Positions 9,130-42,312 of a stretch of DNA of 64,000 nt are shown in pieces. Under the pieces are notes generated by a model. The model saw only the letters and a program-made list of their open reading frames with translations. It had not been told where the DNA came from and made no database searches. Position 1 is the first letter of the stretch, and each line of letters begins with the position of its first letter. The position numbers were made by a program, and so were the translations under genes. Origin of the DNA: Euglena gracilis (lineage: Eukaryota); NCBI GenBank assembly GCA_039621445.1, contig CP154954.1, positions 36,999,703 through 37,063,702 of the forward strand, written 5' to 3'.

Positions 9130-9975
9130 TGTCCATTTCCCATCTGCTTATGGGGTCAGCTAGGCATTCCTTTGAAGGCACCCAGTTGACTTGGAGTTTT
9201 ACTTGGTGCTCCATGCACCATATGAAAAATGGTCTTAGCAGTTTGTTGAAGGGGTCCTTTCTCCCCCCCCCTTTGGTCAGGTAATAGTAGATTACCTGGT
9301 TGTCCACTGACAGGGACACTGTTTCCCCAGGTTTGCTCAAACTTTTCACAGTGTTTATTGCTGAACTGAGCTCCTTTACATTGATGTGTAAAATGGAGTC
9401 TTTTCTCCAAAATTTTGCACAATTTCTCCTGTGTGGGTGTCTAGCCCCCCCCCCAGGCATGGGTGCTCCTGTCTGATTGCAACCCTCTGGTTGCATTTTG
9501 GGGAAGGGTCTGCCTCCCCAGGGGTCTAGCTGAATTTTTATTTCCATTAATTTGGGTCTTGATGTCCTGGGAAATTGGGTGTTTTGAGTCCCAGGGGTCT
9601 GCGGACTTTGCCACCAAAAATTTTGTCAGGGCGTCTGTAAAAGCCCTTAAAAAGGGCAGGGCCATAAGGTTGCATCTTATTTGGCCCAAAATGGCAGCCA
9701 ATTGCCTTTTTGACATGTAATCTTTTTTCACGAGTTTTCCAAGCTCCTTTTTTATTGTTTTCACTTTCTGGGGGGGCACCTGCAGCTTTCCTTCCTGGAA
9801 GTTCAGTTGAAAAAACAGATGGGTTACCATTTGGGTGGGCTGGAGGGTGGACTTTTTCACATTGATTTTAAACCCAGAATCCAGCAAATCTTTGACAACT
9901 GTGTTCAGGTGATTTTGCAAAGTGTTTTGGGTGGTGGCCACCAGCAAAACGTCGTCCAGGTAAACAAACGCCTGG
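9130..9975 (-). pseudogene. DIRS RT C-terminus (YLDD) and RNase H
   Basis: AFVYLDDVLLVA at ~9935-9970; HINVKEL...VDNQ...WVPSKECLADPISR RNase H motifs. Confidence 0.85.
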
Positions 9976-11065
9976 TGACGACCTTTTGAGGTCGACCGCT
10001 GGGCGGCGGAGTTTTTCCCTTTTAGAAGGCCTTTTGAGGGCGGTTTTGCTCTAATTTTAAGGCTTTCTAAACATTTCCATTAAAATTCCCTCTCCTAGGG
10101 CGCCCGTGGTTTGGTTGTGCAAGGAGAGAGATTGAGTGATGCTAGGTATTCCCAAAGGGTGATTTTGGGTCTATTTAGCATAATTTTAAGCTTTTTATGC
10201 ATTTTTCCTTTGGTTTTAAGGGAAAATGTTGGATTTGGTGAGAGCGCTTGCAAGCGCTTGGAACAGAATTTTAAGAGATTGGCGCCTGAGTTCCTGAAGT
10301 TTTTGCAGGGGTTTGCAAAGCTCAATAATGATGGAATTCAGCATAATTTATCAAAATCAAGGGGGGAAACCTTGATTTTGACTTGGGTTGGTTGATTTTG
10401 ATGCAATGGGCAAGAATTTGGGATTTGAGAGCGCTTAGGAATCAGCGCACTCAATCCTAAATTTAACTGCCCATCAAGGGCATCAAAATCATTTTATTTT
10501 CACAGGGTTTTCCTCTTTACCTTTTACACCATTGTACTTGTTGTGGCAATTCAATTACAATCAAGTATTGGATTTACAATTGGAATTGCAAATGGAAGAT
10601 CAACAAAACAATCAGTCATTTGAAGAAGGTGAGGTTTGTCTTCCCCCCACCTCATCTGTGGGAAAAGGGGCAGGGGGGTGGGACTCCTCAACTCAGGCAA
10701 CCACAGGCCAATTTTCACCCCAAAACCCCCTTTTTGGCCCAGAAACTGTGAGAAATGACACCCAGGGGGGGGGTGTTGGCTCTCACTGGTTCAGCTGAGC
10801 AGGGAGGGGTTGAAACCCCAAAGGCACCCCCCTTGGAGATCCCAGTGACACCCCCCCCAGGGGTCGGGGAGGGTCCACTGGGAGGTTCCTCCTTGGAAAT
10901 GATGGCCCAGTTTCGGCCACAGGGGGGGCCAGAATGGGAAAAAATTTCCGACACAAGTCGGCTCGAGGAGCCAAAAAACGATCCTACGCCGGAAACTGGC
11001 CCGGGGCGGGGGTTTCCGCTTCACCCCAGTGCTGCCGGGGGACATGGCAGCACGGGTGTGAAACA
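9976..11065 (+). repeat. 5' LTR of element 1
   Basis: TGACGACC...GTGAAACA; only about five differences from the 3' LTR seen by eye. Confidence 0.95.
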
Positions 11066-14000
11066 TGGTAAGCAGAGGTTGATCCTTCAGCCTTCAGTCG
11101 GAAATTTTGGGTTAGAAATCCCTGCTCAGAATGTTTTCTTTGATGATCAGCCAATGGCCCAATCTCAGATGGCAAATCTGACGATTGGAGTTTCGGGGAA
11201 CAGGGATTTGGGACCGGAAACCAGTTTGGCTGAACTCAGAACCCCCACAGATATGGGACAGATGTTGGAATTTCAGGGTGGGGATGGCCAGGTTGTCATT
11301 TCCAACCAACCGTGTTTTCCAGAGCCTTTTTCAGGAGCTTTGCCTTTGCAAAATATGGGGTACGGTTTTGTGCTGCTGAGTTGCAACCTCTCCCAGACTT
11401 TTCATGGGTGCAAAATTTAGGGAATCTGCCATCATTACCCGCTTTTGCATTGCCTTTGCCTCCAGCTCAACCAGTTTCTTCGACACCAGCCCAAGAGCCG
11501 GTGGCACTTTTGCAGTTTTCCCAACCATCCCAGGTAGATGGGCTGGCGAAGGAAACGGCAGGTGCCTCGGCAGGGCAGGGGGGTGATAACCCCAGCCCAG
11601 TTTTCTTTGAAAAGCAAGCACAGGTCAATGTGCTGGGCTTAAACAATAGTAATAACTGGGACAGCAACGAACGGGTCAGAGCAGAAGTCGAGCAGGCAGA
11701 GGAAAACCCGAAGGACCAGCCCAGCTCTACTTCTGCTCGACGACCCCGAACACCAGCTTCATCACCAGGTAGTGATGAAGTTCAGCAAAAACGGCTGCAC
11801 CGTGAGGTTGATCACGGTCAGCCAGCAGCTGCTGCAGCCCCCCAGCCTCCTCATATTTTCATCGAGGGGGGTGAGGAGGAGGTCCAACCCCCAGCCTATG
11901 AAAGTTCTGAAGCCACCCCCAGGGGGGGTTCACAAAATCAGGGATTTGAAGACCCCTGGGGGCAATTTTTAGAAAGTAACAGAGACCTCCAGTTGACTGT
12001 GCAGCACCTGACTTTTCGGGTTTTGGCTCTGGAAAAAGCCAACGAAGAGTGGGTTCTGCAGCAGCAGCAGCAACAACCCCCCGCGGTCGACATCCACCTG
12101 GTGGAGCACATGGCTGCACGAATCGAAGAAACGGCCAGGGCTGACTGCCTCCATATTTTTGAACTTTTTGAGAAAAAATGTGAGGCCCAGGTGCAAATTT
12201 CTGTGCAAAAAATTGACGCACAGGCACTTGAACTTTTTGTCGGGCAGGAAAAAAGTTTTGAGGAAAAACTGGCCCAGCAGTTTTCTTCGAGCCGTGATCA
12301 GTTTTTGGCCCTGAGGCAGGAATTTTTACGAATTTTGGACAGCCTGCCACAGGAAATTTTTAAGCAGGTGCAAAATCAGGTGGCTGCCTTACCAATTAAG
12401 GATCTCGTGCTTGAAAATTTTCAGCGGTTTGCTGAGAATTTTAAAGCCGCCCAGCCAGCTCAGGGGGGGGAGGCAGAAACTCTCCAGGAGCTGGCCGTTG
12501 TCGCTGCCAAAATCGTTGAAGTTCAGGCTGACCTGGTATCGCTGCGTAGTACGGTACAGGGCCAGGCTCAGCAGCTCCAGCAGTTCGCTGATTATGTTCG
12601 CCAGCTGGGTGAGCAAAATTCAGCAATGAATACGGCCCTCCATGGTTTTGGTGGTGGTATTCAGAAACTGCACCAGAATATTTCAGATGAAGTAGGGAAA
12701 CGACACTCAGAAATGCAAAAACTGTTGACGGATTGTCAGCAGAATTTTCAGAGTGTTCATCAGCAGATTTTTTCCCAGGAGAAAAAATTTGGTGGGCTGG
12801 TGGAGGAATTAAGGCAGGGACTTGCAAAAGTTGGGGGGAACACTTTCGAGTTGCAGAAAGTGTTGCAGGATTTACAAAAAAATGGACCCATACACCCAAC
12901 TGCAGAACCGAGAGGAGTTTTGCAGAAAATTTCTGACATGTGGTGGCTGCGGCAGGGCAGCCAGCAGCCCCTACACCCAGTGGAGCTGCCACAGCCTGGG
13001 CAGCAGCTGGCCCAGCAGCCCGTCGTCCAGCTAGCCCAGCAGCCTGGCCAGCCAGCAGGCCAGTCGCAGCCTGCTCACGGGCTGCCAAGGGGGCTGGGCC
13101 TGCCGTCGGCTGGACAGCAGCAGCCCCTGGGGCAGCCTTCCCGCTCACTGGCCAGCACGGTGCCCAGTGCTGACCCAGCATTTTCAGGTCAGATTATTTC
13201 TCAAAATAAATCTGCAAGTTCAAACATTTCCCCTCCCTTAGTTATTGAGGGGGGATTTGTTTTGGAGGACACACAAGATACGGCAGTGGTTTCTTCTGTG
13301 TCATTGTGTGTCCCCCCACATAAGGCTCTATCGGCTGAATGGAGCTAAATTAAGTTACCCCACCATATTAGCCCAATTCCAGAACCGTTATGCCATGAGT
13401 AAGGGGCTGACGGCTCGGAAAATATGGCAGGAGGTAACCATGGTTAATGAAGGAAAAATTACCCGGGCTGATCTGCAAGAATTTTGGATTAAATTTTGCA
13501 GTGCCTGGCACCATGTTAAGGATGCCACAGCCGGGGAGGCTCGGAGATTATTTTTGGAAAGAATTCCTCCTTTTTTAAGCAAGTTTTGCATAGAAGAGGA
13601 GGATAACCGAGCCCGTAAACAACCCATTGTCAGGCTCACAGGGATACCAAATCCCACGGTGGATGGGATTAAAAGGAGTGTGAGCCAAATCACTGGGGGG
13701 ATTGATCCACGGAAAGTGGTTATCAAAAACCCTGGTGCCATTTGCCTTATTTATTTCAGTTCTTCGCAGGAGGCACTGAAATTAACAGCCGTAAATGGAA
13801 GGAAATTGCAGGGAATGGAAAATTTCCTCAACGCCGAATTGGTGGAACAACTAATGACCGTTGAGGAAATGTTTGCTTTTGCCGAAGGCAGGTTGGCTCT
13901 TCGGGAGAAGCAGGATTTGGCTTTGAATCAGCACCATTTTCCCAGATTATTCAGCAAATCGACAACAAAAGGCTCGGGGAAAATACAGGTGTTGGAAAAA

Positions 14001-14490
14001 GGCCAGACCCCCCCGGTGTCCCCAACATCCGTTTCAGCACCAGCGGCCGGGGAACAGGGTCACACCTCAAAATCTGCCCCACAGCCAGCTCCAAAGGGAG
14101 ATAAGGGGCCAGCCCAGCCAGCCCAGCGGGGCAGGTCCCCTTCTTCGTCTTCGCGGCCAGGTGCAGCTTCATGGTCGCGAACCCAAAGTCCAGCACCCCC
14201 AGCCCGGCAAGGCAAGGGGGGGGAAGACCTGGACCCCGCAGGCATCGGGTCGGGGCAGGTCGCCATACCCATGCTTCAACTGTGGGGAGGGTGGACATTA
14301 TTTTTATGAGTGTGATAAACCGCTGAGTGAGGCCCTTGCTAAATCTAAGGAATTTTGGCAAAATAATGGAAAAGGCAAGGGGCAGCCCAAGGGTAAAGGG
14401 CAGCCAGCCACTCAGCGAAATTCCTCAGGCAAGGGGGGTGCATGGTCAAAGGGGGGTGGGCCCACCTCTTCTCCCCCTGGGGCCCAATAG
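10592..14490 (+). CDS. gag: Gag of element 1, split over several frames: low-complexity and coiled-coil N-terminus, capsid-like region, RRM-like insert, CCHC knuckle
   Basis: Overlapping ORFs 10532-10798, 10755-11420, 11312-13348, 13245-14309, 14161-14490; CFNCGEGGHYFYEC knuckle; region similar to element 2 Gag (W..V..VNEGKIT...FW..F..AW..VK.AT..EA.RL). Confidence 0.75.
11066..11080 (+). promoter_or_regulatory. Primer-binding site, probably initiator tRNA-Met
   Basis: TGGTAAGCAGAGG immediately after the LTR-terminal CA. Confidence 0.75.
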
Positions 14491-14604
14491 GGGGGCCAGG
14501 GGCAGTTTGAGAAGGGGGGGGCTGCCCATGGCCGTGTCTCTCCCCCCTGTGAGGAAAACGGCGTAAATATTTCTGATTCAAAAAACTGGGCTGCACAGGA
14601 TTTT

Positions 14605-15420
14605 ATGGCTGATTCAGGGTGTGGTGAAAAACATTCTTTGCATCAGCCCCCCAGATTTTTGAATCGGACCCGATACTCCTGGAGGGAGGGAAAATGTTCA
14701 AGGGTTCCCATTTTGCATTCAAATCTGCCACAGCCCAACCCCCTACCATCAGCTCAGCGACCTCAGGCATTAGATTTATTCGCTGGCACAGGTTCGGTGG
14801 GGAAGCGGTTGGCAGAACGGGGGTATGAAGTTTTGTCAATTGAAAATGCTCCTTGGACGGACTTCCACCCCCACACAGACATTTTGACCTGGGACTACAG
14901 GCGATACCCGGTTGGATTTTTTGAGGTTATTGCCGCTAGTCCCCCCTGTAATATTTATTCCACGGCTTATAACCCCAGGCCAAGGGATTTCTCCCAGGCG
15001 GATGCCCTGGTGGAGAAAGCCCTGGAAATTATAAATTATTTTCAGCCAAAGTTGTGTTGGTTGGAGAACCCCCGCACTGGACTTTTGCGAAATAGGGAGG
15101 TGGTGAAAAACCTGCCCTATATCGACATTGATTATTGTCAGTTTTCAGATTGGGGTTATAAAAAGCCCACACGTTTCTGGTGCTGCCCAGCCATTTCACA
15201 ATTACGGTCGGTGTTGTGCGATGGCGAATCGTGTCCTAACCTGGTGATGGGGGACAATGGGCAGTTCCGTCACCGTAAATTGTTGGGGGGCAGAAAAATG
15301 AAGTTTACCCCCCGACAAAAAGGACGAATACCCCCCCTGGTGATTGATTATCTCCTAACTGCTGGGGATTTTCGGGGGGGGGCAGCCCAAAGAAATTTCC
15401 CAAAATTCTCAGGATTTTGA
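14605..15420 (+). CDS. C5-cytosine DNA methyltransferase (compact DNMT) between gag and protease
   Basis: Motif I DLFAGTG, motif IV ASPPC (catalytic PC), motif VI WLENP, motif VIII-like YKKPTRFW, motif X-like IPPLVIDYLL. Confidence 0.9.
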   Translation: MADSGCGEKHSLHQPPRFLNRTRYSWREGKCSRVPILHSNLPQPNPLPSAQRPQALDLFAGTGSVGKRLAERGYEVLSIENAPWTDFHPHTDILTWDYRRYPVGFFEVIAASPPCNIYSTAYNPRPRDFSQADALVEKALEIINYFQPKLCWLENPRTGLLRNREVVKNLPYIDIDYCQFSDWGYKKPTRFWCCPAISQLRSVLCDGESCPNLVMGDNGQFRHRKLLGGRKMKFTPRQKGRIPPLVIDYLLTAGDFRGGAAQRNFPKFSGF

Positions 15421-15451
15421 GGAATGGGAAATTCCAGACCGTTGTTGTCAT

Positions 15452-18400
15452 TTGGCCAACACCTTGAAGGTTAATCAGGTGTTGCCCATTGAAAACGAGC
15501 TGCAACTTTTGATGCTATCACAGACGTATCTCCCCAACGGAGATGCCAGGCAGCTCAGAGTTTTGGTTGACACGGGAGCCCAGGTGAACCTGGTGAAAAG
15601 GTCCATCGTCCCAAAACATTTGGCCAGGTCACCGCGAATGCCAATTCGGCTGGTGGCTGCCAACGGCCAATGTGTTTTGGGGGGCGACCAGTGTATTAAG
15701 TTGGAGTTGGGTTTTCAACGCAGGGGTACGGGGCAGGGGGGCACCCAGGCCTTGTACCTCGAAGGGGAATTCTACCTCGCGTATATTGAGGTAGATGCTA
15801 TATTATCATTTCCATGGTTAGCCGAACATGGTTTGGGTGTGTTCCCACACCATAAGGCTTTGGTTTTTGACAATCCTAATCTGACTTTCTTGTACGGGTG
15901 GGATACAAGAAATCAGAAACGGAAATCCCATAAGGGGAAGAAAAAACACAATTCACAAAAAAGAATTGGGGTTGTGGTTTCTGACTTCGGAGAATCCCCT
16001 GAAAACGCACCAACCACGGAGTCCCTTGAAAATGAAAAAGTGTGGTTGGACCTGCAAAAAATGAATTTGCACCTACCCTTGCAAGGCTTTGATATGCAAC
16101 CAAAATTCCTTGGTAAGAAGGAATTGCATACCATAGCCAAGCATCTCACCGAATCGCCAGCCGAGGACAAGGCAGTGAATGCCATAATCCAGGCTCGCGA
16201 CTCGGGTGAGAAGGAAGACCCCAGGGTGGTAGCATTTCGGGATAAAATTTTTCAGGATTTTGAAGGGGAGGTGTTGGGTACGGAGGTACCCCCTGACCCT
16301 CCCGTTCGGGGACCTTATGGTTACGCCCAGATTCCTCTGAAGGAGGGGGCTGTACCCACAAGGCAAAAACCTTTTGTCTTACATGGTGAAAGATTTGAAG
16401 CTCACAAAAAGGTCACACAGGAATGGTGGGACCGGAAATTTGTTGAGCGATTGCCCAAGGGAACAGTTTCGGAATGGCTGTCTGTAACATTTGTGGTGCC
16501 GAAAAAAGGAGGTGAATGGAGGGGAGTGGTAGACATGCGGGGGCCTAACAGTCAAACTAGGCGTGTGTCCTACCCCCTTCCCGTAATTGAAGACCTCCTG
16601 GTAAAACAAGGTGGAAACATGATGTTTTCCATCTTGGATTTACGGCAGGCTTTCCACCAACAGCCGTTGGACCCGGAAAGCCGGCCCATCACATGTTGTA
16701 GTACCCCCCTCGGTCTTTTTCAGTGGAGGGTTAATGTGATGGGTCTAACAAACGCAAGCCAGCAGTTTCAACAAATGATGGAGGATCGCCTCTTCCCAGT
16801 GGGGGACGTGGCTGATCCTTACATCGACGACATTTTGATTGGAACTCGAGTGGGTCCTGGTGAGGATTTACTCGCAGCACACGACAAGGATTTGCGAAGA
16901 GTCCTTGAAGTTTTACGAAAAGACAGATTTGTAGCTGACAAAAGAAAATGCCGTCTTTTCGTAAAAGAAGTTGAGTTTTGTGGCCATGTTCTGGGTGGTG
17001 GGGTGAGAAAACCATCCCCTGGAAAGCTAATGGCCATTGAAAAATGGGAGCTACCCCAAACAATCACGGGTTTACGTGCTTTTCTGGGGTTCACAAATTA
17101 TTACAGCTCCTATGTGAAGGATTACGCCCACATTGTCGCTTGCCTTCAAGATAAGCTCAAAGTTTCACGAGTGGACGGCAAGAAGGGTTCCAAGAAAAGG
17201 ATTTCTTGGGAGCCATCCGACATTGAGGCATTTGAAAAAATTAAATCACTGTTGTGCAGTGAATTAATTTTACAACACGTTAAGCCAGACAAACCATTTG
17301 TTTTAAGAGTGGATGCCAGCCAGTATGCGGTTGGTGCCACCCTTGAACAATTGGTTGGGGAGGATAGGGCTCCTACTCCTGAAGACGTACGGGCCAAGCG
17401 TACCGTGCCTGTCGCCTTCATGAGTAGGAAGCTAACGGGCAGCCAAAGAAACTGGGTACCTAGGGAACAGGAGACTTATGCCATAATCCTAGCCTTGCAA
17501 AAGTGGGAATCATGGATTGGGCTGCAGCCCGTCCTGGTTCTCACGGACCACAAGGCTCTAGAATCTTGGGCTAGAGAGGTTCTAGATACACCAAGTGGTC
17601 CCATTGGGAGAAGGGCTAGGTGGCATCAGATTTTATCAAAATTTGATTTATCGGTTGGGTATATCCCGGGGCGGGAGAATACCATAGCCGATTTGTTGTC
17701 AAGATGGGCTTACCCGGCCTCCCAAGCCTTGAAGGACATTTCAAGGCATGGGTCAGCCCTTGACACCGAGGAAATGAGGGAAATCATTCAAACAGAAAAA
17801 ATGGAGGAAGCCGAATGTATGTGGCTACGGTTGGTGGACCAACCAACCACAGCCAACACATACATTCGTGGAGTCACCACACGGGGTGGTGCTACCACGG
17901 GGTCCGGGGACGCGAGTGGACGGTGCACACGACCGGGGGATAGGAAGTCAGAACCACTTGGAGGAACAAAACCCCAGGGTTTGGGTTCAACCTCCACCCC
18001 CAAGGGAGAAAAAGGAAAACATGTTTCATTCTCAACTCGGGTTGACGAGTTTGGGAATGAGACAAGTCTTGTGGAGGAGGTCCAAGAGCCAAGGGGGGAG
18101 CATTTTCCTTTGACACCCACTTCTATACCAGTTTCGTCAACAACGCCAACCCCTGAACCTGCTGCTGCGGCTACCACTGAGGTACCTGGGGCAGACCGAG
18201 AATCACCTGTGTTGTCTTCAGGTGGTTTGAGTGGTGAGGGGGGGGAAGCCACTTCTACAACCGATTCCTCACCCATCCCCCCTGGTTCTGTGTGGGATTT
18301 ATCGTGGAAGGAGGAATATTTAAAATGTCCCCGTTGGTCACCAATTTTTCAGGCTACCCAGGATTCAAAGGTGCCGTGGCCTGAAAATATAAAGGTTTTT

Positions 18401-19762
18401 GGTGACAAAATGTTTTTCGAGGAGAGGCTTTGTGTGCCCAAATCTCTCCAAGAAAAACTCATTCGGGATCACCACTCATACCAAGGGCATGTGGGATTCC
18501 CAAGGCTATGGGAATGCATGTCCCTTAGGTATGATTGGGCTGATTCCTCACTCGCTCGAGATTTTGCTAAAGGAGTCATGGGCCTTTGTGGGACTTGCCA
18601 AGCGTGCCGAAGGCCGGCGAGTCTTAAGGGTTTAGTGGAATCTACACCCATACCCCCAGCCGTAATGTATTCGGTGGCCCTTGACATGTTTAGCATGCCT
18701 CTCGTGGAGTGGGAAGGGAATTCTTACGACTCCATGCTTGTGTGTGTGGATCGTCACTCCGGTTGGATAGTGGCGATCCCCCACCTAGCAAAAGGATTTA
18801 CGGGAGCCAAGGCAGCCAAGCAAATGCTGTTGCATGCTTGGCGACCTTTTGGCGTCCCTTCCATTATTACTTCCGATCTGGGCTCACATTTTGTCGCCGG
18901 TTGGTGGCAGACAATGTGTGCCTTGATGGGAATTAGGCAAGCCTACTCCCAGGCCTACCATCACCAGGCGAATGGTAGGGCGGAGAGGGCTGGCCAACAA
19001 ATAATGGAACGGCTCAAAAAAATTCAGGTTGAGGACAAGTTGAATTGGGTTGAAGCCCTCCCCCAAGCACTAGACCGTATTCATGATACGCCGGGGGAGA
19101 GTGGCCTGAGCCCATTTCAAATCTTGTTCGGTCGACACCGTTCATTGGGTGGTTTACCTTATGAACCGTTAAGGGATTGTGAAGATGCCAGATCATTTTT
19201 CTCTCGGCAAAGAGAAATTGATTTGGTAGTGGCTGGCAAAATGAATAATTTGCATGCCAAGCAATGTGCTCGGGCCAACCGTGGTTTAGACGGTTGGGAG
19301 CCATTGGAGGTGGGGAATCTGGTGTGGTTCCTGAGACCCCCCGATAGTGGCACGAAATTGGATTCCCGTTGGTTGGGCCCTTGCAAGGTTACCGCGAGGG
19401 AGGGAATTCATTCCTACCTGATTGAGGTTAAACCGGGCCATATTATGAAGGCCCATCGGAAGGCTTTGAAGGTGTATGTGGAGGACCCCACATCTGATAA
19501 GCCTATCCCCCTATTTTTCCACCGGCGGACGGTACCTGAGGCGGAAGGTGCCCCAGATACCTGGTTAGTGGATAAAATCCTAAACCACAAATTCGTTAAG
19601 GGAAAAATGTTTTTCTTAACGAAGTGGCAAGGGTTTGAGGAAGCGAATTGGGAACCGGTGGAACATTTTTTCCAGGAGTACAATAGCGACGTAATAGCGT
19701 ATTGCCTGGGAAAAGGGTTGCCGTTAGATGTCTCTAAGGATTTAAAGGCAACGGCAACCTGA
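15452..19762 (+). CDS. pol: Pol polyprotein of element 1: aspartic protease, RT, RNase H, integrase, chromodomain
   Basis: LVDTGA; LDLRQAFHQ and YIDD; VDAS, EQE, LTDH, ADLLSR; HHCC plus ALD/TSD/NGRAE; RWLGP; WLVDKIL...FLTKWQGF...WEP. Confidence 0.97.
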   Translation: MANTLKVNQVLPIENELQLLMLSQTYLPNGDARQLRVLVDTGAQVNLVKRSIVPKHLARSPRMPIRLVAANGQCVLGGDQCIKLELGFQRRGTGQGGTQALYLEGEFYLAYIEVDAILSFPWLAEHGLGVFPHHKALVFDNPNLTFLYGWDTRNQKRKSHKGKKKHNSQKRIGVVVSDFGESPENAPTTESLENEKVWLDLQKMNLHLPLQGFDMQPKFLGKKELHTIAKHLTESPAEDKAVNAIIQARDSGEKEDPRVVAFRDKIFQDFEGEVLGTEVPPDPPVRGPYGYAQIPLKEGAVPTRQKPFVLHGERFEAHKKVTQEWWDRKFVERLPKGTVSEWLSVTFVVPKKGGEWRGVVDMRGPNSQTRRVSYPLPVIEDLLVKQGGNMMFSILDLRQAFHQQPLDPESRPITCCSTPLGLFQWRVNVMGLTNASQQFQQMMEDRLFPVGDVADPYIDDILIGTRVGPGEDLLAAHDKDLRRVLEVLRKDRFVADKRKCRLFVKEVEFCGHVLGGGVRKPSPGKLMAIEKWELPQTITGLRAFLGFTNYYSSYVKDYAHIVACLQDKLKVSRVDGKKGSKKRISWEPSDIEAFEKIKSLLCSELILQHVKPDKPFVLRVDASQYAVGATLEQLVGEDRAPTPEDVRAKRTVPVAFMSRKLTGSQRNWVPREQETYAIILALQKWESWIGLQPVLVLTDHKALESWAREVLDTPSGPIGRRARWHQILSKFDLSVGYIPGRENTIADLLSRWAYPASQALKDISRHGSALDTEEMREIIQTEKMEEAECMWLRLVDQPTTANTYIRGVTTRGGATTGSGDASGRCTRPGDRKSEPLGGTKPQGLGSTSTPKGEKGKHVSFSTRVDEFGNETSLVEEVQEPRGEHFPLTPTSIPVSSTTPTPEPAAAATTEVPGADRESPVLSSGGLSGEGGEATSTTDSSPIPPGSVWDLSWKEEYLKCPRWSPIFQATQDSKVPWPENIKVFGDKMFFEERLCVPKSLQEKLIRDHHSYQGHVGFPRLWECMSLRYDWADSSLARDFAKGVMGLCGTCQACRRPASLKGLVESTPIPPAVMYSVALDMFSMPLVEWEGNSYDSMLVCVDRHSGWIVAIPHLAKGFTGAKAAKQMLLHAWRPFGVPSIITSDLGSHFVAGWWQTMCALMGIRQAYSQAYHHQANGRAERAGQQIMERLKKIQVEDKLNWVEALPQALDRIHDTPGESGLSPFQILFGRHRSLGGLPYEPLRDCEDARSFFSRQREIDLVVAGKMNNLHAKQCARANRGLDGWEPLEVGNLVWFLRPPDSGTKLDSRWLGPCKVTAREGIHSYLIEVKPGHIMKAHRKALKVYVEDPTSDKPIPLFFHRRTVPEAEGAPDTWLVDKILNHKFVKGKMFFLTKWQGFEEANWEPVEHFFQEYNSDVIAYCLGKGLPLDVSKDLKATAT

Positions 19763-19828
19763 AAAAGGGGGAAAGGGAGGTGAAAAAGGACCTGGAGTGG
19801 TTGCCTGGGGAGGGGGAGGTCCCACTCC

Positions 19829-20599
19829 ATGCCCCTTCACAGATGCAGGTGGACGTGCCAACGGAAAACCCCACAAAACCCACAGAGGGAGGAGGCGGGC
19901 CGGCCCCCTAGGAGGGAGGAGGAGGAGGAGGTCACCCCAGAACTGGAAAAGGCACTTCAGAAAAATGATGGGGGCAGTGCTTCTTCGTCATTTTTTGAGT
20001 TTTTATTTCCAGAACTCATCCATCAACCCTGTCCGGGTTTGGATGGGGTTCAAGCAACCGAAGGATTTTCGGATGCTTGGGACGCTATTTTTCGATATGC
20101 CCCTGAACCCCCGAGAACGGAAGTTCAGGTGGTTATCGAAAGTTTATATCCGGACATCCGAACGGCTAGGGAGAAACTAGCCGGGGATCCGTATTTTATT
20201 GTTTTGATGGGTGGAGAAGGACAATTACCATTTCATCCAACCCCGGATGGGGGCGGGATGAATTTGCCAACATCAAAAGGCAAAGCCCGCATCGTCAAGC
20301 GAATTGTCGATGTGGATGGTTTTGCTTATGTGGCCATAAATGGATGGGTGCCGGTTTGGTTCCCATCCCGTGTACCCGATTGGATTGAAGTGATGGGGGA
20401 AAGTTCTCGGTGGCAAAACCACTGGAGGTGGGTCCGAGGATTTTACCTCGAGCAAGCACAAAGGTCCCATGTGCTTGTTCATTTCCCAAATGCGGACATG
20501 GTGTGGGTCCATGTTGCATTATGGAAGGAACTCCGAGTCGAACGGTACCTCGATCTGTGGTCGGAGGAGGCCGATCTCCTCAACGGGTACATCTGTTAA
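19829..20599 (+). CDS. Extra ORF of unknown function downstream of pol (256 aa)
   Basis: Open frame with ordinary globular-protein composition in its C-terminal ~200 aa, inside the element; no recognised motif. Confidence 0.5.
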   Translation: MPLHRCRWTCQRKTPQNPQREEAGRPPRREEEEEVTPELEKALQKNDGGSASSSFFEFLFPELIHQPCPGLDGVQATEGFSDAWDAIFRYAPEPPRTEVQVVIESLYPDIRTAREKLAGDPYFIVLMGGEGQLPFHPTPDGGGMNLPTSKGKARIVKRIVDVDGFAYVAINGWVPVWFPSRVPDWIEVMGESSRWQNHWRWVRGFYLEQAQRSHVLVHFPNADMVWVHVALWKELRVERYLDLWSEEADLLNGYIC

Positions 20600-21359
20600 T
20601 CTCACTCCTGGTTTGGAGTGAGAGAAGGGTAGGGAAGGGCCACGGTCTGCTCATCGGTACAGCCGAGCAGAACCCTTTTGTAAATAAAGGACGGGGGGGG
20701 AGGATTTCCCCCCTGCCACCTTTTGGTGGCGAGCTGGGCAAGATGGATGCCCATATGCCCAGCAAGCCAGGGCAAGGGAAGGTGGAAAGGGAAGGAAATT
20801 GTGCGGCAGTACACCCGCACATCCAAGCGAAGGGCGGAAGATGCACCGACAGCAAAGAAGCCCAAAAGCAACCCCGAACCCAAGCCCCCAGCTCAGCCCG
20901 CCTCCAAGTCCTCCGGCCCCCGCCGTGGGCTCCCAAGCCCATACCTTACAAGGGGATCGGCAAGGGAGGACGGAGGAGTGGCAGTGGAAACAAAACCCCC
21001 CAAGCTGCAATCATTGCTGCCACACGCATCAACCACCGTACCCCCCCAAACCGTACCCATACCCCCACCGCAGCCCTACCCCTGGTGGTATTAATATCTT
21101 TGCATGGCATTGGATATATATGGGATATTACAACTGCCTGCCTCCTCGCTTACTCAGGACGGAACCTAGAGCCGGGACTCTGAGTTGGACGAGTTGAAGA
21201 CGGATTCTCAATTATTATTCGAAGTGGAACCACGACGAGCGGTGGACAGGCCGAAAGTGTAACCTGACCACACTCGAACGTCACATTGCGCCCACAGTCA
21301 TGAAAGAGGAATCTGTGTTTTTCATTTCTCCCCTCTCACGGGTCGGTGGCACGCGTGGG

Positions 21360-21930
21360 GGGGGGTCCCTTTCTCAATCGGTTTGATTGGCTATTTTATC
21401 GTACCCCCCTTTGGGCAAGTGAGGCCCGAAAGGTCGGCTTGATCGGGGGGGGGGGGCGTGTTTTTTTGACCTGGGGGGGGTGGGGGGGGCAAGCAAGCCT
21501 TTGGGGGGGGGGGCTGGCCCAGGTGGCGGGGGGGGGGGGGGGGGGGGGGGCAAGGCATGGGGGGGGGGGGGGGGGGCCAAGGCCCCGGGGGGGGGGGGGG
21601 GCAAGGTGCAAGGGGAAATGGGGGGGGGGGGGGTTCAAGCCCCGGGGGGGGGGCAAGGCAAGGCCGGGGGGGGGGGCCAACCCTCGGGGGGGGGGGGCAA
21701 GTCAAGCCCACCTCTCGGGGGGGGGGGGGGGGCGGGGGCAAAAGCGGGGGGGGGGGGGGGCAAGTCAAGCCCACCTCTCGCGGGGGGGGGGGGACAGCTC
21801 GGGGGGGGGGGGGCAAGTCAGGGGGGGGGGCTAGGTCGGGGGGGGGGGGGGGGGGGGCAAGTCAAGCCCACCTCTCGCGGGGGGGGCAAACTTTTCCCCA
21901 AGGCCTTCCCCTCGGGGGGGGGGGGGGGGG
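21360..21930 (+). repeat. G-tract-rich tandem array in the 3' UTR of element 1
   Basis: GGGCAAG cores between long G runs; GCAAGTCAAGCCCACCTCTCG occurs three times. Confidence 0.85.
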
Positions 21931-22277
21931 GTGTTTTCTTTTTTCACCAAAAGGATTTTTGGTGATAATGGGCCCCCCCGTCCCTTTCCGGGTGGGAATA
22001 CCGTGGGGGGGGGCTGATTTTTATCCATTCAAGAAAGGATTTTTTTGAGTGGTGTTGGGCCCCCATTTCCTTTCACGGTGGTGAGAACCGTGGGGGGGGG
22101 CTCGGTGTGGTGGAACGGGATCTATGGGTTATAGATTCCTCCTCACCGTTACGCCACCACCTATACACGTTGCCGAACAATGTTATCGCAATTGCGTTGC
22201 AAAAATTCAAAGTGTCTTTCATTCCCACCCCAAGGAAAGCGAGAAGGAGAGGGGGTGAAACCCCCGACTTTCGTCGC

Positions 22278-22288
22278 AAGGGGGGGAG
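22278..22288 (+). promoter_or_regulatory. Polypurine tract of element 1
   Basis: AAGGGGGGGAG abutting the 3' LTR. Confidence 0.85.
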
Positions 22289-23380
22289 TGACGACCTTTT
22301 GAGGTCGACCGCCGGGCGGCGGAGTTTTTCCCTTTTAGAAGGCCTTTTGAGGGCGGTTTTGCTCTAATTTTAAGGCTTTCTAAACATTTCCATTAAAATT
22401 CCCTCTCCTAGGGCGCCCGTGGTTTGGTTGTGCAAGGAGAGAGATTGAGTGATGCTAGGTATTCCCAAAGGGTGATTTTGGGTCTATTTAGCATAATTTT
22501 AAGCTTTTTATGCATTTTTCCTTTGGTTTTAAGGGAAAATGTTGGATTTGGTGAGAGCGCTTGCAAGCGCTTGGAACAGAATTTTAAGAGATTGGCGCCT
22601 GAGTTCCTGAAGTTTTTGCAGGGGTTTGCAAAGCTCAATAATGATGGAATTCAGCATAATTTATCAAAATCAAGGGGGGAAACCTTGATTTTGACTTGGG
22701 TTGGTTGATTTTGATGCAATGGGCAAGAATTTGGGATTTGAGAGCGCTTAGGAATCAGCGCACTCAATTCTAAATTTAACTGCCCATCAAGGGCATCAAA
22801 ATCATTTTATTTTCACAGGGTTTTCCTCTTTACCTTTTACACCATTGTACTTGTTGTGGCAATTCAATTACAATCAAGTATTGGATTTACAATTGGTATT
22901 GCAAATGGAAGATCAACAAAACAATCAGTCATTTGAAGAAGGTGAGGTTTGTCTTCCCCCCACCTCATCTGTGGGAAAAGGGGCAGGGGGGTGGGACTCC
23001 TCAACTCAGGCAACCACAGGCCAATTTTCACCCCAAAACCCCCTTTTTGGCCCAGAAACTGTGAGAAATGACACCCAGGGGGGGGGGGTGTTGGCTCTCA
23101 CTGGTTCAGCTGAGCAGGGAGGGGTTGAAACCCCAAAGGCACCCCCCTTGGAGATCCCAGTGACACCCCCCTCAGGGGTCGGGGAGGGTCCACTGGGAGG
23201 TTCCTCCTTGGAAATGATGGCCCAGTTTCGGCCACAGGGGGGGCCAGAATGGGAAAAAATTTCCGACACAAGTCGGCTCGAGGAGCCAAAAAACGATCCT
23301 ACGCCGGAAACTGGCCCGGGGCGGGGGTTTCCGCTTCACCCCAGTGCTGCCGGGGGACATGGCAGCACGGGTGTGAAACA
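22289..23380 (+). repeat. 3' LTR of element 1
   Basis: Direct repeat of 9976-11065. Confidence 0.95.
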
Positions 23381-24675
23381 CTGGATGCCCCCTTTTGTCC
23401 AGAGCTTTTCGAAAGTTTTCATAACTGACATGAAAATTTGGGGCATTACACTTAGCCCAAAGCAGCCTGTTTGAAATTACCAGGTCTACCCCCCACCTGA
23501 TGTCTCAAAAATGGCCTTAGGCCTGGACTTACTGGAATTTGAAAGTAGGCTTCCTTGAGGTCTATTTTTGCTGCCCAGTGGCCTTTTTCAAAAACTGGAA
23601 AAATGTCCTGGATATGATCCAGCTTGAAAGGTTTTACTTGAAATTGCTGATTGATTTCTCTGCAATCTCTGACCATTCTCCACTTGGTTGTTCCCCCCTC
23701 TGGTTTTGAAATTAAAAACCATGGGATCAAATGCTGGGTTTCTGATTTTTCGTAATCCAACAGAGTTTTTTCTGCCTGGTTTAAGTACAGGTTGGCTCTG
23801 GGTTTTGGATGGGTGGACAATTTTGGGGGGATTTACCCAGGGGGGTTGCATTCCATTTTTCATCAATTAACATGTTGCTGGGGGCGGCATTTTTTGTGTA
23901 CCATTTTAGACTCTTCTGAAGTCACTGGTACAGGGGGTTGTCTCCCCATTTTTCCTCCATGGAATGTATTCTCCCAACTAGATGATTTTCTGGGTGCTGG
24001 GTGGGGGGGTTGGACATTGCACGCCTCGTGCCCCTGCGGATTGAGCACTCTCTAAAGGTGGCTGGGGGGGGTGTGCATGCTCTGCTCACAGAGTTTTCTT
24101 ATCCTCCACTTTGTCATTGGTGTTGTCGATTGACATACCATAGGGGCCCTTCTTGGGTCTCCCCCTTGCTTAGGCTTGCCCCTGCCATGGGTATTGATAA
24201 AGAAAGTTGAGGGGGGTGGCCCCCTTGTCCTCCACTGCCCCTGTGGGGGCATCCTCCTGGGACTGCCACAGTACATTAAAGCCCCCTGATGGCGGACAGC
24301 CTTTTAGCTTCTGGGGCTTCACCCCTTCTGATATTTGATGGCCCCAGTGGTCTTGAATTTTTTGATGTTGTTGATGATAATTCTTGCCCCACTGGCCCTC
24401 TTGAAATTTTGACAGTCCCCATTTACTTCTCTTTGACCTTTTGCTCCATGCCCACTGAAAATCTTGGGGGGCCTCTGGGGGCCAATCCTTTTCCCCTGGT
24501 AGGGTTTGTGATGAAGAAATGGTTGGGGGGTCGTTGTGGACCTGTCCTGCCCCTGCCACTGGGCATCTGTTTGTAGAATAGGCCACCCTGGCCTTGGTAT
24601 TGTTGGCCACCGTGGCCTTTGTTCCATCGGCCACCATGGCCATTGCTGTTGTGGCCTCCGTGGGGGAAAAGGGCC
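23381..24675 (-). pseudogene. DIRS 5' part (ORF1 tail and RT N-terminus), continuation of 7385-9975
   Basis: KWRMVRDCREIN, WAAKIDLKEAYFQI; joins the 9975 side in frame once the LTR element and one TSD are removed. Confidence 0.85.
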
Positions 24676-31686: not shown

Positions 31687-32522
31687 TGTCGGCCGCCGGC
31701 TTTCGCCGGCAGCCAAAAATTGCCAGAAGGTGCAAATTACAAAGTCGCGGGTAACAGCCAATCAGTTAAAAAAACCCGCGACTTAAATTGGAAGCGGGTC
31801 AAATTTCGAAGCGCCTTCGAATTTGTTTTTTTTTTCACAGAACTTGAGGGGTTTTCCCCAATATTTGGCAAGAAGGAATACTATTGTATCGAATTTGGCA
31901 ATTGGACTTTGATTTGGAGTGGCAAGTTGAGTTTCATTGTTGGTCATTGATTCATTGAAGTCAATTGAATTGAAGGAACCTTTAACACCACCGCCCACCC
32001 TCCTATGTCTTCACCTTCGCCTCCGCTTTCACCCCCGACGACCGCTCCTTGCCCCAAGGTTTGCACATTCCATACATTCACATTTCACAGTTTTCGGTTT
32101 CAAGTGTCTTCTCATTCAAGTTTCAGAGTTTCAGAAATCAAGTTTCTTTCAGTTTTTGACTTCAAGAGTTTCAAGCTCCAGTGGGTTGGTTTTGCTCACA
32201 AGGTGTGCAAGGGAGAGAGAGAGAGAAAAGTGAGATTTGCAAGCAAAAAGGCAGATCTTTCGATTTTAAGCAAAATTTCGGAAACCGTTCAAAAAACGAT
32301 CCTACGCACCGGCTGGGGTTGGGGAAACCACCTGGGTGAAAAAAAAAGGGGTTGACTTGAGCCCACCAACCCCCGGAGAAAGCGCAGGCCCCACCCCGGA
32401 AACACCACCCCCCCTGTCGGTGGTCCTCCCCACCGGCGAGGACCCCCCGGGGCCCTCCGCCCGAAGGGACTCGGCGGTCGCGGGGGCGACCGGCGGCCCG
32501 GGGGTGGCGGACCCGGTGAACA
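31687..32522 (+). repeat. 5' LTR of element 2
   Basis: TGTCGGCC...GGTGAACA. Confidence 0.95.
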
Positions 32523-36478: not shown

Positions 36479-36496
36479 GACAGCCGGGGTGGACCG

Positions 36497-41887: not shown

Positions 41888-42312
41888 GCTCTAAGGTGAG
41901 CCATAAGGCCCTGTCAAAGGCTCTACGGCGAGCCAAGTGGGAAGGCAAAGTGCTGTTTTTAACCGAACACCAAAATTCAAAAGCCGGCTTTGCACGTCCG
42001 TGTGGGTGTTTGTGCGCACATGCGCACGGGAGTGTGAAAGGAAGAATGTACAAAGGCAAGCATTTGAGAATGTGAGAATGGAGAAAGATAGAAAAAGGCC
42101 CTGCAAGGGGGCCGGGGCACCACAGTATATTCGCTGCACGTTCGCTATATTGCCGTCCGCTGTCTCCCTTCCCTTCCTCTACCTTACCCCGCTGCCCTTA
42201 CACCTTACCCCACATTGCCGTCACGTCCCATATGGTGGTGTTGTAAGGATTCCTTTTCAAAGCATCGGATATGTGGATGATGTGGTTGGGAGTCCATGGT
42301 CACATAATGAGC

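Follow-up and report, generated by a model that had tools for sequence, protein, structure and literature searches.

The 64,000-nucleotide stretch of Euglena gracilis DNA analysed here (assembly GCA_039621445.1, contig CP154954.1, positions 36,999,703 to 37,063,702), referred to below as the window, contains two LTR retrotransposons, E1 and E2, which both carry a compact C5-cytosine methyltransferase (DNMT) domain. The features of E1, in window positions, are as follows.

9976-23380, plus strand: E1, chromodomain Ty3/gypsy LTR element
9972-9975, second copy 23381-23384, plus strand: target-site duplication CTGG, 4 bp
9976-11065, plus strand: 5' LTR, TG...CA, by blastn against the 3' LTR
11066-11082, plus strand: primer-binding site TGGTAAGCAGAGGTTGA
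11234-13345, plus strand: ORF1 of 704 codons, an N-terminal extension of Gag that is Q-rich and coiled-coil, with weak coiled-coil Pfam matches only
13242-14216, plus strand: capsid-like part of Gag in frame 3, with 33% identity to residues 950-1146 of E2 ORF1
14216-14223, plus strand: G8 run with the gag frame change of the E1 copy, of varying length among the copies compared
14272-14313, plus strand: Gag nucleocapsid zinc knuckle CFNCGEGGHYFYEC, frame 1, zf-CCHC 17.6 bits, under the cutoff of 20.8
14488-14490, plus strand: gag stop TAG, in frame with the downstream DNMT ORF, candidate readthrough site
14491-14742, plus strand: spacer of 84 codons from the gag stop to the DNMT, matching no Pfam family
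14743 to about 15380, plus strand: DNMT domain
15374-15382, plus strand: G9 run at which DNMT (frame 1) and Pol (frame 2) are split, a single frame in relatives
15359-19762, plus strand: Pol, open frame
15569-15577, plus strand: protease DTG
about 16496-16990, plus strand: RT, RVT_1 66.7 bits
about 17207-17644, plus strand: RNase H, RT_RNaseH 84.8 bits
about 18434-18961, plus strand: integrase, rve 36.2 bits
about 19565-19663, plus strand: chromodomain, Chromo 17.9 bits, under the cutoff of 25.1 (E2: 42.3 bits)
21473-21850, plus strand: poly-G-rich tandem repeats of the 3' untranslated part
22275-22288, plus strand: polypurine tract CGCAAGGGGGGGAG
22289-23380, plus strand: 3' LTR

Structure and age of E1

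E1 exhibits the features of a chromovirus, namely TG..CA LTRs, a target-site duplication, a primer-binding site and a polypurine tract, together with the order protease (PR), RT, RNase H, integrase (IN) and chromodomain. The blastn comparison showed that the two LTRs are 99.45% identical over 1091 columns, with 4 substitutions and one 2-nt indel in a G-run, in agreement with the initial annotation, which had counted about five differing sites. Because the LTRs are this similar and the target duplication CTGG is present, the recent insertion proposed there is supported. The compact DNMT was also correctly placed between gag and protease, its ORF (14491-15420) lying between the zinc knuckle and the DTG. 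The Pol frame is open as described, but its length is 1467 codons from stop to stop instead of 1436 aa. The element had further been called nearly intact, which did not hold, since the frames shift at the two G-runs (14216-14223 and 15374-15382) and at the junction 13320/13321. In contigs of all four sequencing runs the copies of E1 diverge at 13320/13321, with loose ends on both sides, and in contigs of all four runs the length of the 15374-15382 run varies. With its reading frames interrupted, the E1 copy as read in the window is unable to make a Gag-Pol fusion. No match to Dam (PF05869) was obtained in any forward E1 ORF scanned.

The methyltransferase domain

The DNMT-bearing ORF extends from 14491 to 15420 under the standard code, and the ATG at 14605, where the initial annotation began, is its first. 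The domain itself, about 212 aa, contains motifs I, IV, VI and VIII, a target-recognition stretch and a motif X-like RIP, located as follows.

14779-14793, plus strand: motif I, FAGTG
14938-14949, plus strand: motif IV, SPPC
15061-15072, plus strand: motif VI, LENP
15130-15180, plus strand: DYCQFSDWGYKKPTRFW motif
15217-15240, plus strand: CDGESCPN of the target-recognition stretch
15322-15336, plus strand: GRIPP, motif X-like RIP

The domain represents a distinct short C5-methyltransferase family, characterized by motifs I, IV (PC) and VI (ENP) and a K-x-TR-x-W form of motif VIII. The Pfam model PF00145 (cutoff 22 bits) gave 20.5 bits for E1, under the cutoff, and 22.5 bits for E2, over it; both alignments cover only profile positions 3-117 (approximately) of 324, and the scores range from 19 to 27 bits across the 17 family members scanned. 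The C-terminal half, in which the variant K-x-T-R-x-W and the RIP motif are conserved, was aligned by no profile. Matches were obtained with PHROG 757 (E 1.1e-10), PHROG 363 (E 1.7e-10) and the PADLOC type II C5-MTase models (E 3e-8), and the E1 domain fits the PHROG 757/363-like family by profile, length, ENP and YC...K-x-T-x-W, although it is not a free-standing gene. Among solved structures, the matches to DNMT1, DNMT2, HhaI and HaeIII do not fall below E 6e-4 and are confined to about 57 residues of motifs IV-VI; the best match is DNMT1 at 6e-4, DNMT2 and tRNA m5C38 enzymes follow at E 0.04-0.07 in the profile search, and no DNMT3 chain was found at E<=1 in the sequence and profile searches of solved structures. 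A database search matched the domain to 2491 of 1.84 billion representatives, and at E<=1e-3 the homologues comprise 212 of near-equal length and 31 longer ones, so that the domain is far beyond chance. The target-recognition stretch of the family is 47 residues long with conserved Cys/Cys/His, and a Cys/Cys/Cys/His set in the domain, made up of the DYC Cys, the two Cys of the target-recognition stretch and the His, is proposed as a putative zinc site.

The second element and conservation of the domain

A homologous domain was found in E2, whose features are given below.

31687-32522, plus strand: 5' LTR; 3' LTR at 42928-43767, 96.9% identical, target duplication ACAC
32525-36478, plus strand: ORF1/Gag, 1317 codons, closed by TAG at 36476-36478, the following ORF being in the same frame
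36731-37372, plus strand: C5-methyltransferase domain, 218 aa, 46.3% identical to the E1 DNMT (E 1e-61)
37391-37750, plus strand: Dam-type N6-adenine methyltransferase domain, NPPW at 37535-37546 intact, PF05869 40.8 bits, cutoff 28.1
38008-41884, plus strand: Pol remnants in several frames, with RT, RNase H, integrase and chromodomain

E2 is older than E1, and its DNMT occupies the position matching that of the E1 DNMT, with a spacer from the gag stop that is likewise 84 codons long. The LTRs of the two elements are unrelated (an 18-nt match only), their Gags are 33% identical over 202 aa, and TGGTTAGCAGAGGTTGG stands in E2 at the position equivalent to the primer-binding site of E1. Between the Dam domain of E2 and that of P0157, a relative, identity is 47%.

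The initial annotation had concluded from these two elements that the domain is inherited and maintained, and the wider comparison supported it. PC and ENP, whose loss in most copies would have argued against function, are largely kept across the retroelement clade: among its 96 rows PC is kept in 93, ENP in 88 (with ETP in a further 7) and K-TR-W in 86. The F-G-G of motif I is kept in 75 of these rows, its F and first G in nearly all of them, and in the target-recognition stretch the first Cys is present in 96/96, the second in 94/96 and the His in 96/96. In E2 the second Cys is replaced (CDGQTFPN), and the E1 copy has a private Cys at 15057, adjoining ENP, in place of the Trp found in P0136 and the other copies. 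The DNMT is conserved about as well as the protease and integrase. Identity to E1 ranges from 45 to 85% for the DNMT and from 36 to 79% for the protease, and the DNMT equals or exceeds the protease in 10/10 full-length relatives. Of 132 variant sites 40 are listed, few and partly private to the E1 copy; in this set the DNMT has 3 synonymous and 4 non-synonymous changes and PR-RT has 11 and 4.

Viral and phage relatives

The nearest stand-alone relatives, at 40-45% identity, are located on contigs of IMG/VR that also carry hallmark genes of virophages, PLVs or NCLDVs. In the IMG/VR pattern scan, 257 of 301 matches encode a relative, and PC is kept in 50/51 of the IMG/VR rows. At least one hallmark gene was detected by tblastn in 55 of the 80 loci kept; a capsid homologue of a Capsid_N-positive ORF is present in 35 of the 80, a Sputnik-type capsid in 5 and an A32 ATPase in 22. 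Pfam matches on these loci include the Sputnik MCP (250 bits), V18/19, Pox_A32, D5_N/PriCT_2 and the RNR small chain, and the viral relatives often adjoin other DNA methyltransferases (N6_N4_Mtase, D12 class). When 185,579 prokaryote genomes were scanned for the pattern, 6 loci were obtained from 3 MAGs, and 3 of these loci adjoin a Pox_A32-type ATPase. Six loci also came from the metagenome scan, where identity did not exceed 53%. The earlier suggestion of a viral or bacterial orphan enzyme rather than DNMT1/3 is therefore sustained for viruses, with relatives at 40-45% identity, and the bacterial half, with its 6 loci in 3 MAGs, is the weaker one.

Stand-alone enzymes of virophages, PLVs and giant viruses (L008, L002, L034, L012) resemble the E1 domain in whole-domain identity, length, motifs and Cys/Cys/His, whereas each is a gene of its own in a dsDNA virus, about 200-240 codons long and not fused to Pol, and they fall outside the retroelement clade in both trees. 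The phage and archaeal-virus enzymes (PHROG 757/363, Bacillus phage JBP901 gp140, Haloferax tailed virus 1 gp60) share the compact layout, ENP and YC..G..K-x-T-x-W, but they are only 27-35% identical to the E1 DNMT and have no aligned first Cys and His. The trees were built from retroelement, viral and phage rows, with the canonical eukaryotic DNMT1-6 left out. The quick tree (149 rows) gave a retroelement clade of 89 rows with support 97. The careful LG+C20 tree of 74 rows placed 36/36 of the sampled Pol-linked DNMTs in one clade (84/89), and the viral and retroelement rows were split from the 3 phage rows, the outgroup, at 98/99. The clade of 36 was present in 86% of 200 bootstrap trees, and with P0254 added its support was 98/87. 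As the base of the careful tree is not settled among the viral groups, it is parsimony that gives the direction of transfer: phages and eukaryotic viruses have the stand-alone form. The evidence points to a methylase lineage probably common to virophages, polinton-like viruses, giant viruses and retroelements.

Fusion to Pol and the gag stop

In the relatives Pol begins with the DNMT, which is therefore not a separate gene; P0136 (82% identity), P0137 and P0145 encode DNMT-PR-RT in a single frame. All of the 65 Pol-linked relatives match Ty3/gypsy Pol, and in them, as here, the DNMT is either joined to Pol or lies beside it. The DNMT lies before the protease in 37, between PR and RT in 17 and between RNase H and IN in 1, and was unplaced in 10, while a Dam domain is also carried by 14 of the 65. 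The domains have been shuffled in a modular way among these relatives.

An in-frame gag stop is present in E1, E2, L085 and L088 (TAG) and in L087 (TGA), that is, in 3 of the 4 informative metagenome loci, the upstream ORF of L086 having only 25 codons. In E1, E2, L085, L087 and L088 the upstream ORF of the same frame either is open to the contig edge or has Gag features. TAG is absent from the 1467 and 309 open codons of E1, thus it is not simply a sense codon there. In retroviruses of the gammaretrovirus type, Gag-Pol is made through readthrough of an in-frame gag UAG. E1, E2 and the three relatives are similar in having an in-frame stop between gag and Pol, but differ in that no stimulatory structure is supported in E1 or E2, and the likeness is known here from sequence. 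The RNA fold in the 80 nt after both TAGs was no better than in shuffled sequences (z +0.69 and -0.39, for pseudoknot-free folds). A G/purine-rich stretch follows the in-frame gag stop in E1, E2 and three relatives, and in an alignment of the stop context of five sequences only E1 and L088 resemble each other. In view of the missing fold signal, it is solely from the conserved in-frame arrangement that we infer expression of the DNMT by readthrough of the gag stop. Translation may also re-initiate at the ATG at 14605.

A proposed mechanism

Taken together, E1 is a recently inserted Ty3/gypsy chromovirus. Its methylase, of virus type, was probably acquired in a single capture, travels with Gag-Pol and would act on the DNA newly made by the element itself. 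The layout of the E1 family would be Gag (coiled-coil extension, capsid and zinc knuckle), TAG, a spacer of 84 residues, DNMT, PR, RT, RNase H, IN and chromodomain. A stand-alone viral methyltransferase gene would have been captured a single time by an LTR element and then relocated within Pol, accompanied by Dam in some elements and not in others. Since the DNMT would be made only upon readthrough of the gag stop, it would enter the particle as a part of Gag-Pol, from which the protease would release it. The released enzyme may methylate cytosines in a short motif, either on the DNA just made by reverse transcription or on the fresh insertion, and new copies would therefore arrive already marked with 5mC.

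A wider reading is offered only tentatively. An unnamed chromovirus lineage of many uncultured eukaryotes may derive from one capture of a virophage or polinton-like-virus C5-methylase, packaged within Gag-Pol by readthrough and methylating the element's own cDNA before or at integration, as epigenetic camouflage or self-taming; the DNMT of the published Euglena EpiLTRs might then be the same viral enzyme and not a relative of DNMT4. If so, the methylases of retrotransposons would be tied to the traffic between endogenous virophages or PLVs and the retroelements that insert into them, and new insertions would be born with the silencing mark of the host.

Other explanations were considered against the same observations. 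The methylase might act in trans and keep its role from the donor virus, marking host or co-resident viral DNA or protecting against a restriction-like nuclease. Its nearest relatives are solo enzymes of virophage, PLV and NCLDV contigs, often located by other DNA methyltransferases, many relatives, like E2, carry Dam alongside the DNMT, and viral solo methyltransferases are discussed as counter-defence or inter-virus competition in the consulted part of the work on Chrysochromulina parva virus (PMC6459981). However, because the enzyme is fused to Pol downstream of the gag stop, its expression and location are bound to the particle, and the Pfam scan revealed no nuclease partner in E1 or E2. 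We consider a role in trans unlikely, although the observations are compatible with action in cis or in trans. It appears improbable that the domain is instead a host-derived, DNMT4-like enzyme, short and fast-evolving, which merely looks viral, the viral genes having been acquired secondarily from retroelements. The placement of EpiLTR DNMTs as sister to DNMT4 in the part of the preprint consulted (10.64898/2026.05.21.726589), the EpiLTR domain set of E2 and the unsettled base of our tree would agree with such an origin. On the other hand, the viral stand-alone genes are 40-45% identical with all motifs in common, phage enzymes share the compact layout and the YC..G..K-x-T-x-W signature, and the canonical enzymes of known structure match no better than E 6e-4, along a stretch of about 57 residues, with PF00145 at just 19-27 bits.

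We regard it as highly improbable that the DNMT is a neutral or decaying cargo and the E1 copy simply dead. The three frame interruptions and the private W-to-C change beside ENP in E1, the lost Cys and broken Pol of E2, and the statement in the accessible part of de Mendoza et al. (PMC5890265) that DNMT carriage is not required for retrotransposon activity in Symbiodinium could be read in this way, but PC and ENP persist (93/96 and 88/96) in clade members that are only 45-60% identical, and the DNMT, at least as conserved as the protease in all ten comparisons, has been retained across at least three positions in Pol. Methylation of RNA, either the genomic RNA of the element or its tRNA primer, by a DNMT2-like activity is scarcely credible: the enzyme would be packaged with genomic RNA, and DNMT2 and tRNA m5C38 enzymes were matched at E 0.04-0.07, yet these matches are no better than those to DNA methyltransferases (DNMT1, 6e-4) and the close relatives all belong to dsDNA viruses and phages.

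Relation to published retrotransposon methylases

Retrotransposons with DNA methylases of their own are rare, and whether a mobile element can write the epigenetic state of its new copies is an open question. Fernandez-Moreno et al. (2026 preprint, 10.64898/2026.05.21.726589), in the part of the text consulted, described EpiLTRs, LTR retrotransposons with DAM, DNMT and chromodomain, from Euglena gracilis and Cymbomonas tetramitiformis, with the Cymbomonas DNMT at the 3' end of Pol. E2 has this domain set because it also carries a Dam domain, and E1 is without Dam. E2, with three epigenetic modules on a Ty3/gypsy backbone, the 14 of 65 relatives with Dam and the modular shuffling thus resemble the EpiLTRs as outlined there, whereas E1 and its nearest relatives lack Dam and the DNMT is at the 3' end of Pol in 0/65 relatives. 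The EpiLTR DNMTs were placed near DNMT4, in a tree that held representative eukaryotic families according to the methods text, whereas compact viral methyltransferases are nearest here, the two results being compared by description only. If the EpiLTR DNMTs belong to the same family, their stated affinity to DNMT4 would need revisiting.

According to the accessible part of de Mendoza et al. 2018 (PMC5890265), KnitGypsy-Dnmt3 and SymbioDIRS-Dnmt3 carry DNMT3-type enzymes of eukaryotic origin in the Pol ORF, and these enzymes are under purifying selection and were proposed to methylate retrotranscribed DNA. Location within the Pol ORF is common to these and to E1, but the E1 DNMT has no DNMT3 match at E<=1 in solved structures, is about 210 residues long and lies before the protease. 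The same part of that work describes SymbioLINE-Dnmt, an orphan DNMT that dinoflagellate LINEs carry in ORF1 and that, it was suggested, may have come from a virus. It resembles the E1 enzyme in being an orphan non-DNMT1/3 methylase on a retroelement and is set apart by architecture, a LINE with the DNMT in ORF1 and the endonuclease-RT in ORF2 versus an LTR chromovirus with the DNMT in Pol. As far as their texts were available, the Ectocarpus TE paper (PMC12477816) concerns an N4/N6 methyltransferase of DNA transposons, the opinion of Morozov et al. (PMC6338049) cites the 2018 work only, and Sarre et al. 2025 (PMC12344493) report 'orphan' DNMTs of viral origin and no such LTR element.

Methylase cargo of this general kind has therefore already been reported, and the novelty claimed initially is reduced by the DAM plus DNMT chromodomain elements of the preprint, at least as they are described there. 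What this locus adds is a form of chromovirus that carries the DNMT alone and has it at the head of Pol; in the literature searched we found no paper describing a compact DNMT of viral type before the protease of a chromovirus. A methylase lineage shared with DNA viruses would point to gene flow between DNA viruses and retroelements in protist mobilomes. The 65 Pol-linked relatives, with three positions in Pol and with or without Dam, make the function testable by comparison and expression.

Composition of the window

The 50 ORFs scanned outside E1 and E2 contained TE domains only and no host gene, and searches of the window for tRNAs and Rfam families found none. One sequencing run, a leaf-litter metatranscriptome, contains a 0.14 share of the sequence words, which is evidence of neither habitat nor expression. 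The CpG observed/expected ratio is about 0.5 across the window, 0.51-0.59 in E1 and E2, 0.40-0.64 in their flanks and 0.86 in a third element. CpG depletion is alike inside and outside E1 and E2, so these ratios give no sign, or footprint, of self-methylation; the host genome appears to be CpG-methylated.

Structure of the methyltransferase-bearing elements

Two elements of the window, a young chromodomain Ty3/gypsy LTR element (E1, 9976-23380) and an older one (E2, 31687-43767), encode its only two matches to a compact C5-cytosine methyltransferase (DNMT). E2 and a third LTR-type element also hold Dam-type N6-adenine methylase (Dam) or Dam-like sequence.

Features of the three LTR-type elements
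9976-11065 and 22289-23380, +: E1 LTRs, TG start, CA end, flanked by a CTGG duplication
E1 N-terminal ORF: Q-rich coiled-coil, 704 codons, then the capsid-like Gag part
14216-14223: G8 run, E1 frame change between capsid part and zinc knuckle
14272-14313: CCHC zinc knuckle of E1 Gag
14488-14490: E1 gag stop, TAG, then an 84-codon spacer and the DNMT
14491-15420, +: E1 DNMT ORF, 309 open codons, standard code
14743 to about 15380, +: E1 DNMT domain, ORF residues 85-297
15374-15382: G9 run, E1 frame change between DNMT and Pol
E1 Pol frame, after the DNMT: 1467 codons, protease (DTG), RT, RNase H, integrase, chromodomain
31687-32522 and 42928-43767, +: E2 LTRs, 96.9% identical, ACAC duplication
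36731-37372, +: E2 DNMT, 46.3% identical to E1 DNMT over 218 residues (E 1e-61)
about 47856-55600: third LTR-type element, 979-codon coiled-coil Gag extension, two zinc knuckles at 50099-50821
50825-53155: 777-codon ORF of the third element, weak Dam-like stretch, HPPL replacing NPPW
53022-54449: RT-RNase H of the third element, 39% identical to E1

The E1 layout and the near-identity of its LTRs bear out the initial annotation, which had placed a DNMT between gag and protease in a young chromodomain element; over 1091 columns the two LTRs are set apart by four substitutions and a single G run whose length differs by 2 nt. The primer-binding site comes directly after the 5' LTR and the polypurine tract just before the 3' LTR; within the 3' untranslated part, tandem repeats of G12-G19 blocks occupy 21473-21850. 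Judged by its homologues, the DNMT domain is certainly real, with 212 near-length and 31 longer ones at E<=1e-3, and 2491 matches, 154 of them at <1e-30, among 1.84 billion cluster representatives. It contains FAGTG (motif I), SPPC (IV), LENP (VI), GRIPP and a variant motif VIII, DYCQFSDWGYKKPTRFW, with CDGESCPN lying in a 47-residue stretch. The Pfam DNA_methylase model reached 20.5 bits (cutoff 22) over the N-terminal half only, and matches were obtained with the phage DNA methyltransferase families PHROG 757 and 363 (E~1e-10) and with PADLOC type II C5-MTase models (E 3e-8).

E2 indeed carries the homologous DNMT at the same position, as had been noticed, although no more than an 18-nt match connects the LTRs of the two elements and their Gags show 33% identity over 202 residues. 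Between the Pols identity is 46-55%, with E2 Pol broken across several frames. Immediately 3' of the E2 DNMT lies a Dam domain (PF05869, 40.8 bits, cutoff 28.1) with NPPW intact, sharing 47% identity with the Dam portion of the homologue P0157; a scan of the E1 forward ORFs found no Dam. The Dam-like stretch of the third element scored 19 bits with PF05869 and was 31% identical to E2 Dam (pairwise E 1e-9), and the window search found no DNMT in that element.

Family layouts and proposed origin of the domain

The relatives are gene calls on short contigs. Among 290 homologues matching E1 DNMT, 65 also match E1 Pol, 23 the E2 Dam region and 14 both. Pfam analysis of 16 long members gave three layouts, DNMT-(PR)-RT-RH-IN-chromo, DNMT-Dam-... 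and (PR)-Dam-DNMT-RT-.... In the 65 Pol-linked relatives the DNMT lies ahead of the protease (37/65), between protease and RT (17/65) or, at a third position within Pol seen in P0165, between RNase H and integrase (1/65), with 10/65 unplaced and none after the chromodomain. The module has been shuffled, because the quick tree implies four changes of protease/DNMT order and five of Dam presence.

This quick tree (LG+G) comprised the 149 rows that remained of 190 after thinning at 72% identity, with 54 homologues lacking a full-length domain omitted, and the careful tree (LG+C20) 74 rows, namely 30 random and chosen Pol-linked, 23 IMG/VR, 12 short and 3 phage; both were built without canonical eukaryotic DNMTs. 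This phylogeny with phage and eukaryotic-virus MTases, which covers the viral part of a check proposed in the initial annotation, put the Pol-linked DNMTs in one clade and the viral genes outside it. In the quick tree all Pol-, Dam- or extension-bearing rows and 10 short ones formed one 89-row clade (SH-aLRT 97), and 36/36 IMG/VR rows fell outside. In the careful tree the 36 retroelement rows formed one clade (84/89; 98/87 with the short protein P0254), which was recovered in 86% of the 200 bootstrap trees. Viral and retroelement rows together split from the phages at 98/99, whereas the branching of the viral groups relative to one another and to the retroelement clade is not firm. A single capture of the DNMT by retroelements is thus supported, since the Pol-linked rows form one clade, and a direction from virus to retroelement would rest on the stand-alone form being common to phages and eukaryotic viruses.

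Below about 175 bits the homologues are complete 200-240-residue proteins of the DNMT domain alone, and 257 viral contigs, out of 301 pattern matches in IMG/VR, encode such stand-alone enzymes. Their neighbours include a Sputnik-type virophage major capsid protein (250 bits), a penton protein, a Pox_A32 packaging ATPase, a D5-type primase-helicase, an NCLDV-type Capsid_N protein, the ribonucleotide reductase small chain and other DNA MTases, and two of the contigs bear giant-virus MAG names. When 80 IMG/VR loci were kept and searched by tblastn with hallmark proteins, 55 had at least one hallmark gene (capsid homologue 35, A32 ATPase 22, virophage capsid genes 5). One viral contig (L001:2358-3785, -) also encodes another DNA-modification gene, a TET-associated glycosyltransferase (PF20691, E 4e-9). 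Bacillus phage JBP901 gp140 and gp60 of the archaeal virus HFTV1 share the layout and signature of E1 DNMT at 27-35% identity. Scanning 185,579 prokaryote genomes for pattern matches yielded six loci in three MAGs, four contigs coming from one MAG; three loci (L091, L093, L096) adjoin a Pox_A32-type ATPase, and these contigs resemble virophage or PLV sequences that were binned wrongly. Solved canonical C5-MTases match the family profile only marginally (DNMT1 E 6e-4 over 57 residues, DNMT2 0.04-0.07, HaeIII 0.11, HhaI 0.37), and sequence and profile searches found no DNMT3 among solved structures at E<=1. The earlier suggestion of a viral or bacterial orphan type rather than DNMT1/3 therefore holds for its viral half, with virophage, PLV and NCLDV kin, its bacterial half being the weaker one.

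Comparison with described systems

The retroelement-borne DNMTs described by de Mendoza et al. 2018 (PMC5890265) are DNMT3-type domains in DIRS and Gypsy elements and, in dinoflagellate LINEs, an orphan type. The preprint of Fernandez-Moreno et al. 2026 (10.64898/2026.05.21.726589) describes EpiLTRs, chromodomain LTR elements with DAM and DNMT, from Euglena gracilis and Cymbomonas tetramitiformis, and reports their DNMTs as sister to DNMT4; its screen took DAM as the starting point, at an E-value cutoff of 1e-5. Judged by domain content E2 has this set, and its DNMT may or may not belong to the same family as theirs, whereas E1 is a DNMT-only form. DNMT-only elements fell outside the screen design, and most members of the present family, with PF00145 E-values of 5e-6 to 9e-4, would fail its cutoff. 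The literature searched yielded no account of a chromovirus with a compact DNMT of viral type in front of its protease.

Conservation, and proposed expression and function

Loss of PC and ENP in most copies would argue against function; of 96 retroelement-clade rows, 93 have PC, 88 ENP (7 more have ETP) and 86 K-TR-W. In the short recognition stretch the first Cys is kept in 96/96, the second in 94/96 and the His in 96/96, and of 51 IMG/VR rows 50-51 retain these residues; along with the DYC Cys, they may form a small zinc site. E1 DNMT is 45-85% identical to ten long relatives, never below the protease (36-79%), near the integrase and lower than RT and RNase H. Domain order, single clade, conserved catalytic set and viral kinship are thereby established at the level of sequence.

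A TAG closes the gag frame of both E1 and E2; beyond it the DNMT ORF follows in phase, and 84 of its codons precede the domain. An in-frame stop also precedes the DNMT in three of the four metagenome relatives reaching upstream (L085 TAG, L088 TAG, L087 TGA; L089 begins within the domain and is not among the four), where the same-frame upstream ORF is open as far as the contig edge; that of the fourth, L086, has 25 codons only. Reassignment of TAG is unlikely because TAG is absent from the 309 and 1467 open codons of E1, and we infer that DNMT-Pol is expressed through readthrough of the gag stop. RNA folding energies at the E1 and E2 gag stops gave no support for readthrough (z +0.69 and -0.39), and in a five-sequence alignment the sequence after the stop was common to E1 and L088 only. 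Through readthrough, a minority of translation events would give Gag-DNMT-Pol; the DNMT would be packaged, freed by protease cleavage, and might then methylate a short motif on new double-stranded cDNA or a fresh insertion. The main rival explanation is that the enzyme acts in trans, its target being DNA of the host or of viruses. CpG observed/expected is about 0.5 in the window, which suggests a CpG-methylating host; it is alike inside and outside E1 and E2 and is therefore uninformative on the element's own enzyme.

State of the E1 copy

E1 is less intact than the "nearly intact" reading had it. Contigs from four public runs, of three organisms (A, B and C), were aligned to 13000-16500; the family is abundant, run X1 alone giving 3340 contigs. 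The contigs differ in length at precisely the G8 and G9 runs, the G9 difference affecting every contig in three of the public runs and some in the fourth. At 13320/13321, the first E1 frame change, contigs from all four runs diverge on either side, so between ORF1 and the capsid part other copies carry sequence that differs from, or adds to, that of E1. The copy also has a private Cys at 15057 beside ENP, where other copies and P0136 have Trp. The G-run lengths are either true mutations or assembly homopolymer errors, and contigs of a multi-copy family are compatible with either. The view of the DNMT as a gene apart from Pol likewise fails, as its closest protein relatives (P0136, 82% identical; P0137; P0145) read DNMT, protease and RT in one frame.

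Surrounding sequence

The window is a nest of retroelements, and a scan of 50 ORFs outside E1 and E2 found no recognisable host gene. RT fragments adjoin E1 (9444-10079, -) and E2 (30644-31090, +), and a 157-nt direct repeat pair (154-310 and 5912-6068, 92% identical, 5.8 kb apart) possibly represents the LTRs of another element. The third element has a CpG observed/expected of 0.86 versus about 0.5 elsewhere in the window. Throughout the window GG/CC dinucleotides are over-represented (1.4-1.7) and TA is depleted (0.35-0.6). Many copies of a ~198-bp satellite unit (60-100% identity to reference copies) occupy 57200-64000.
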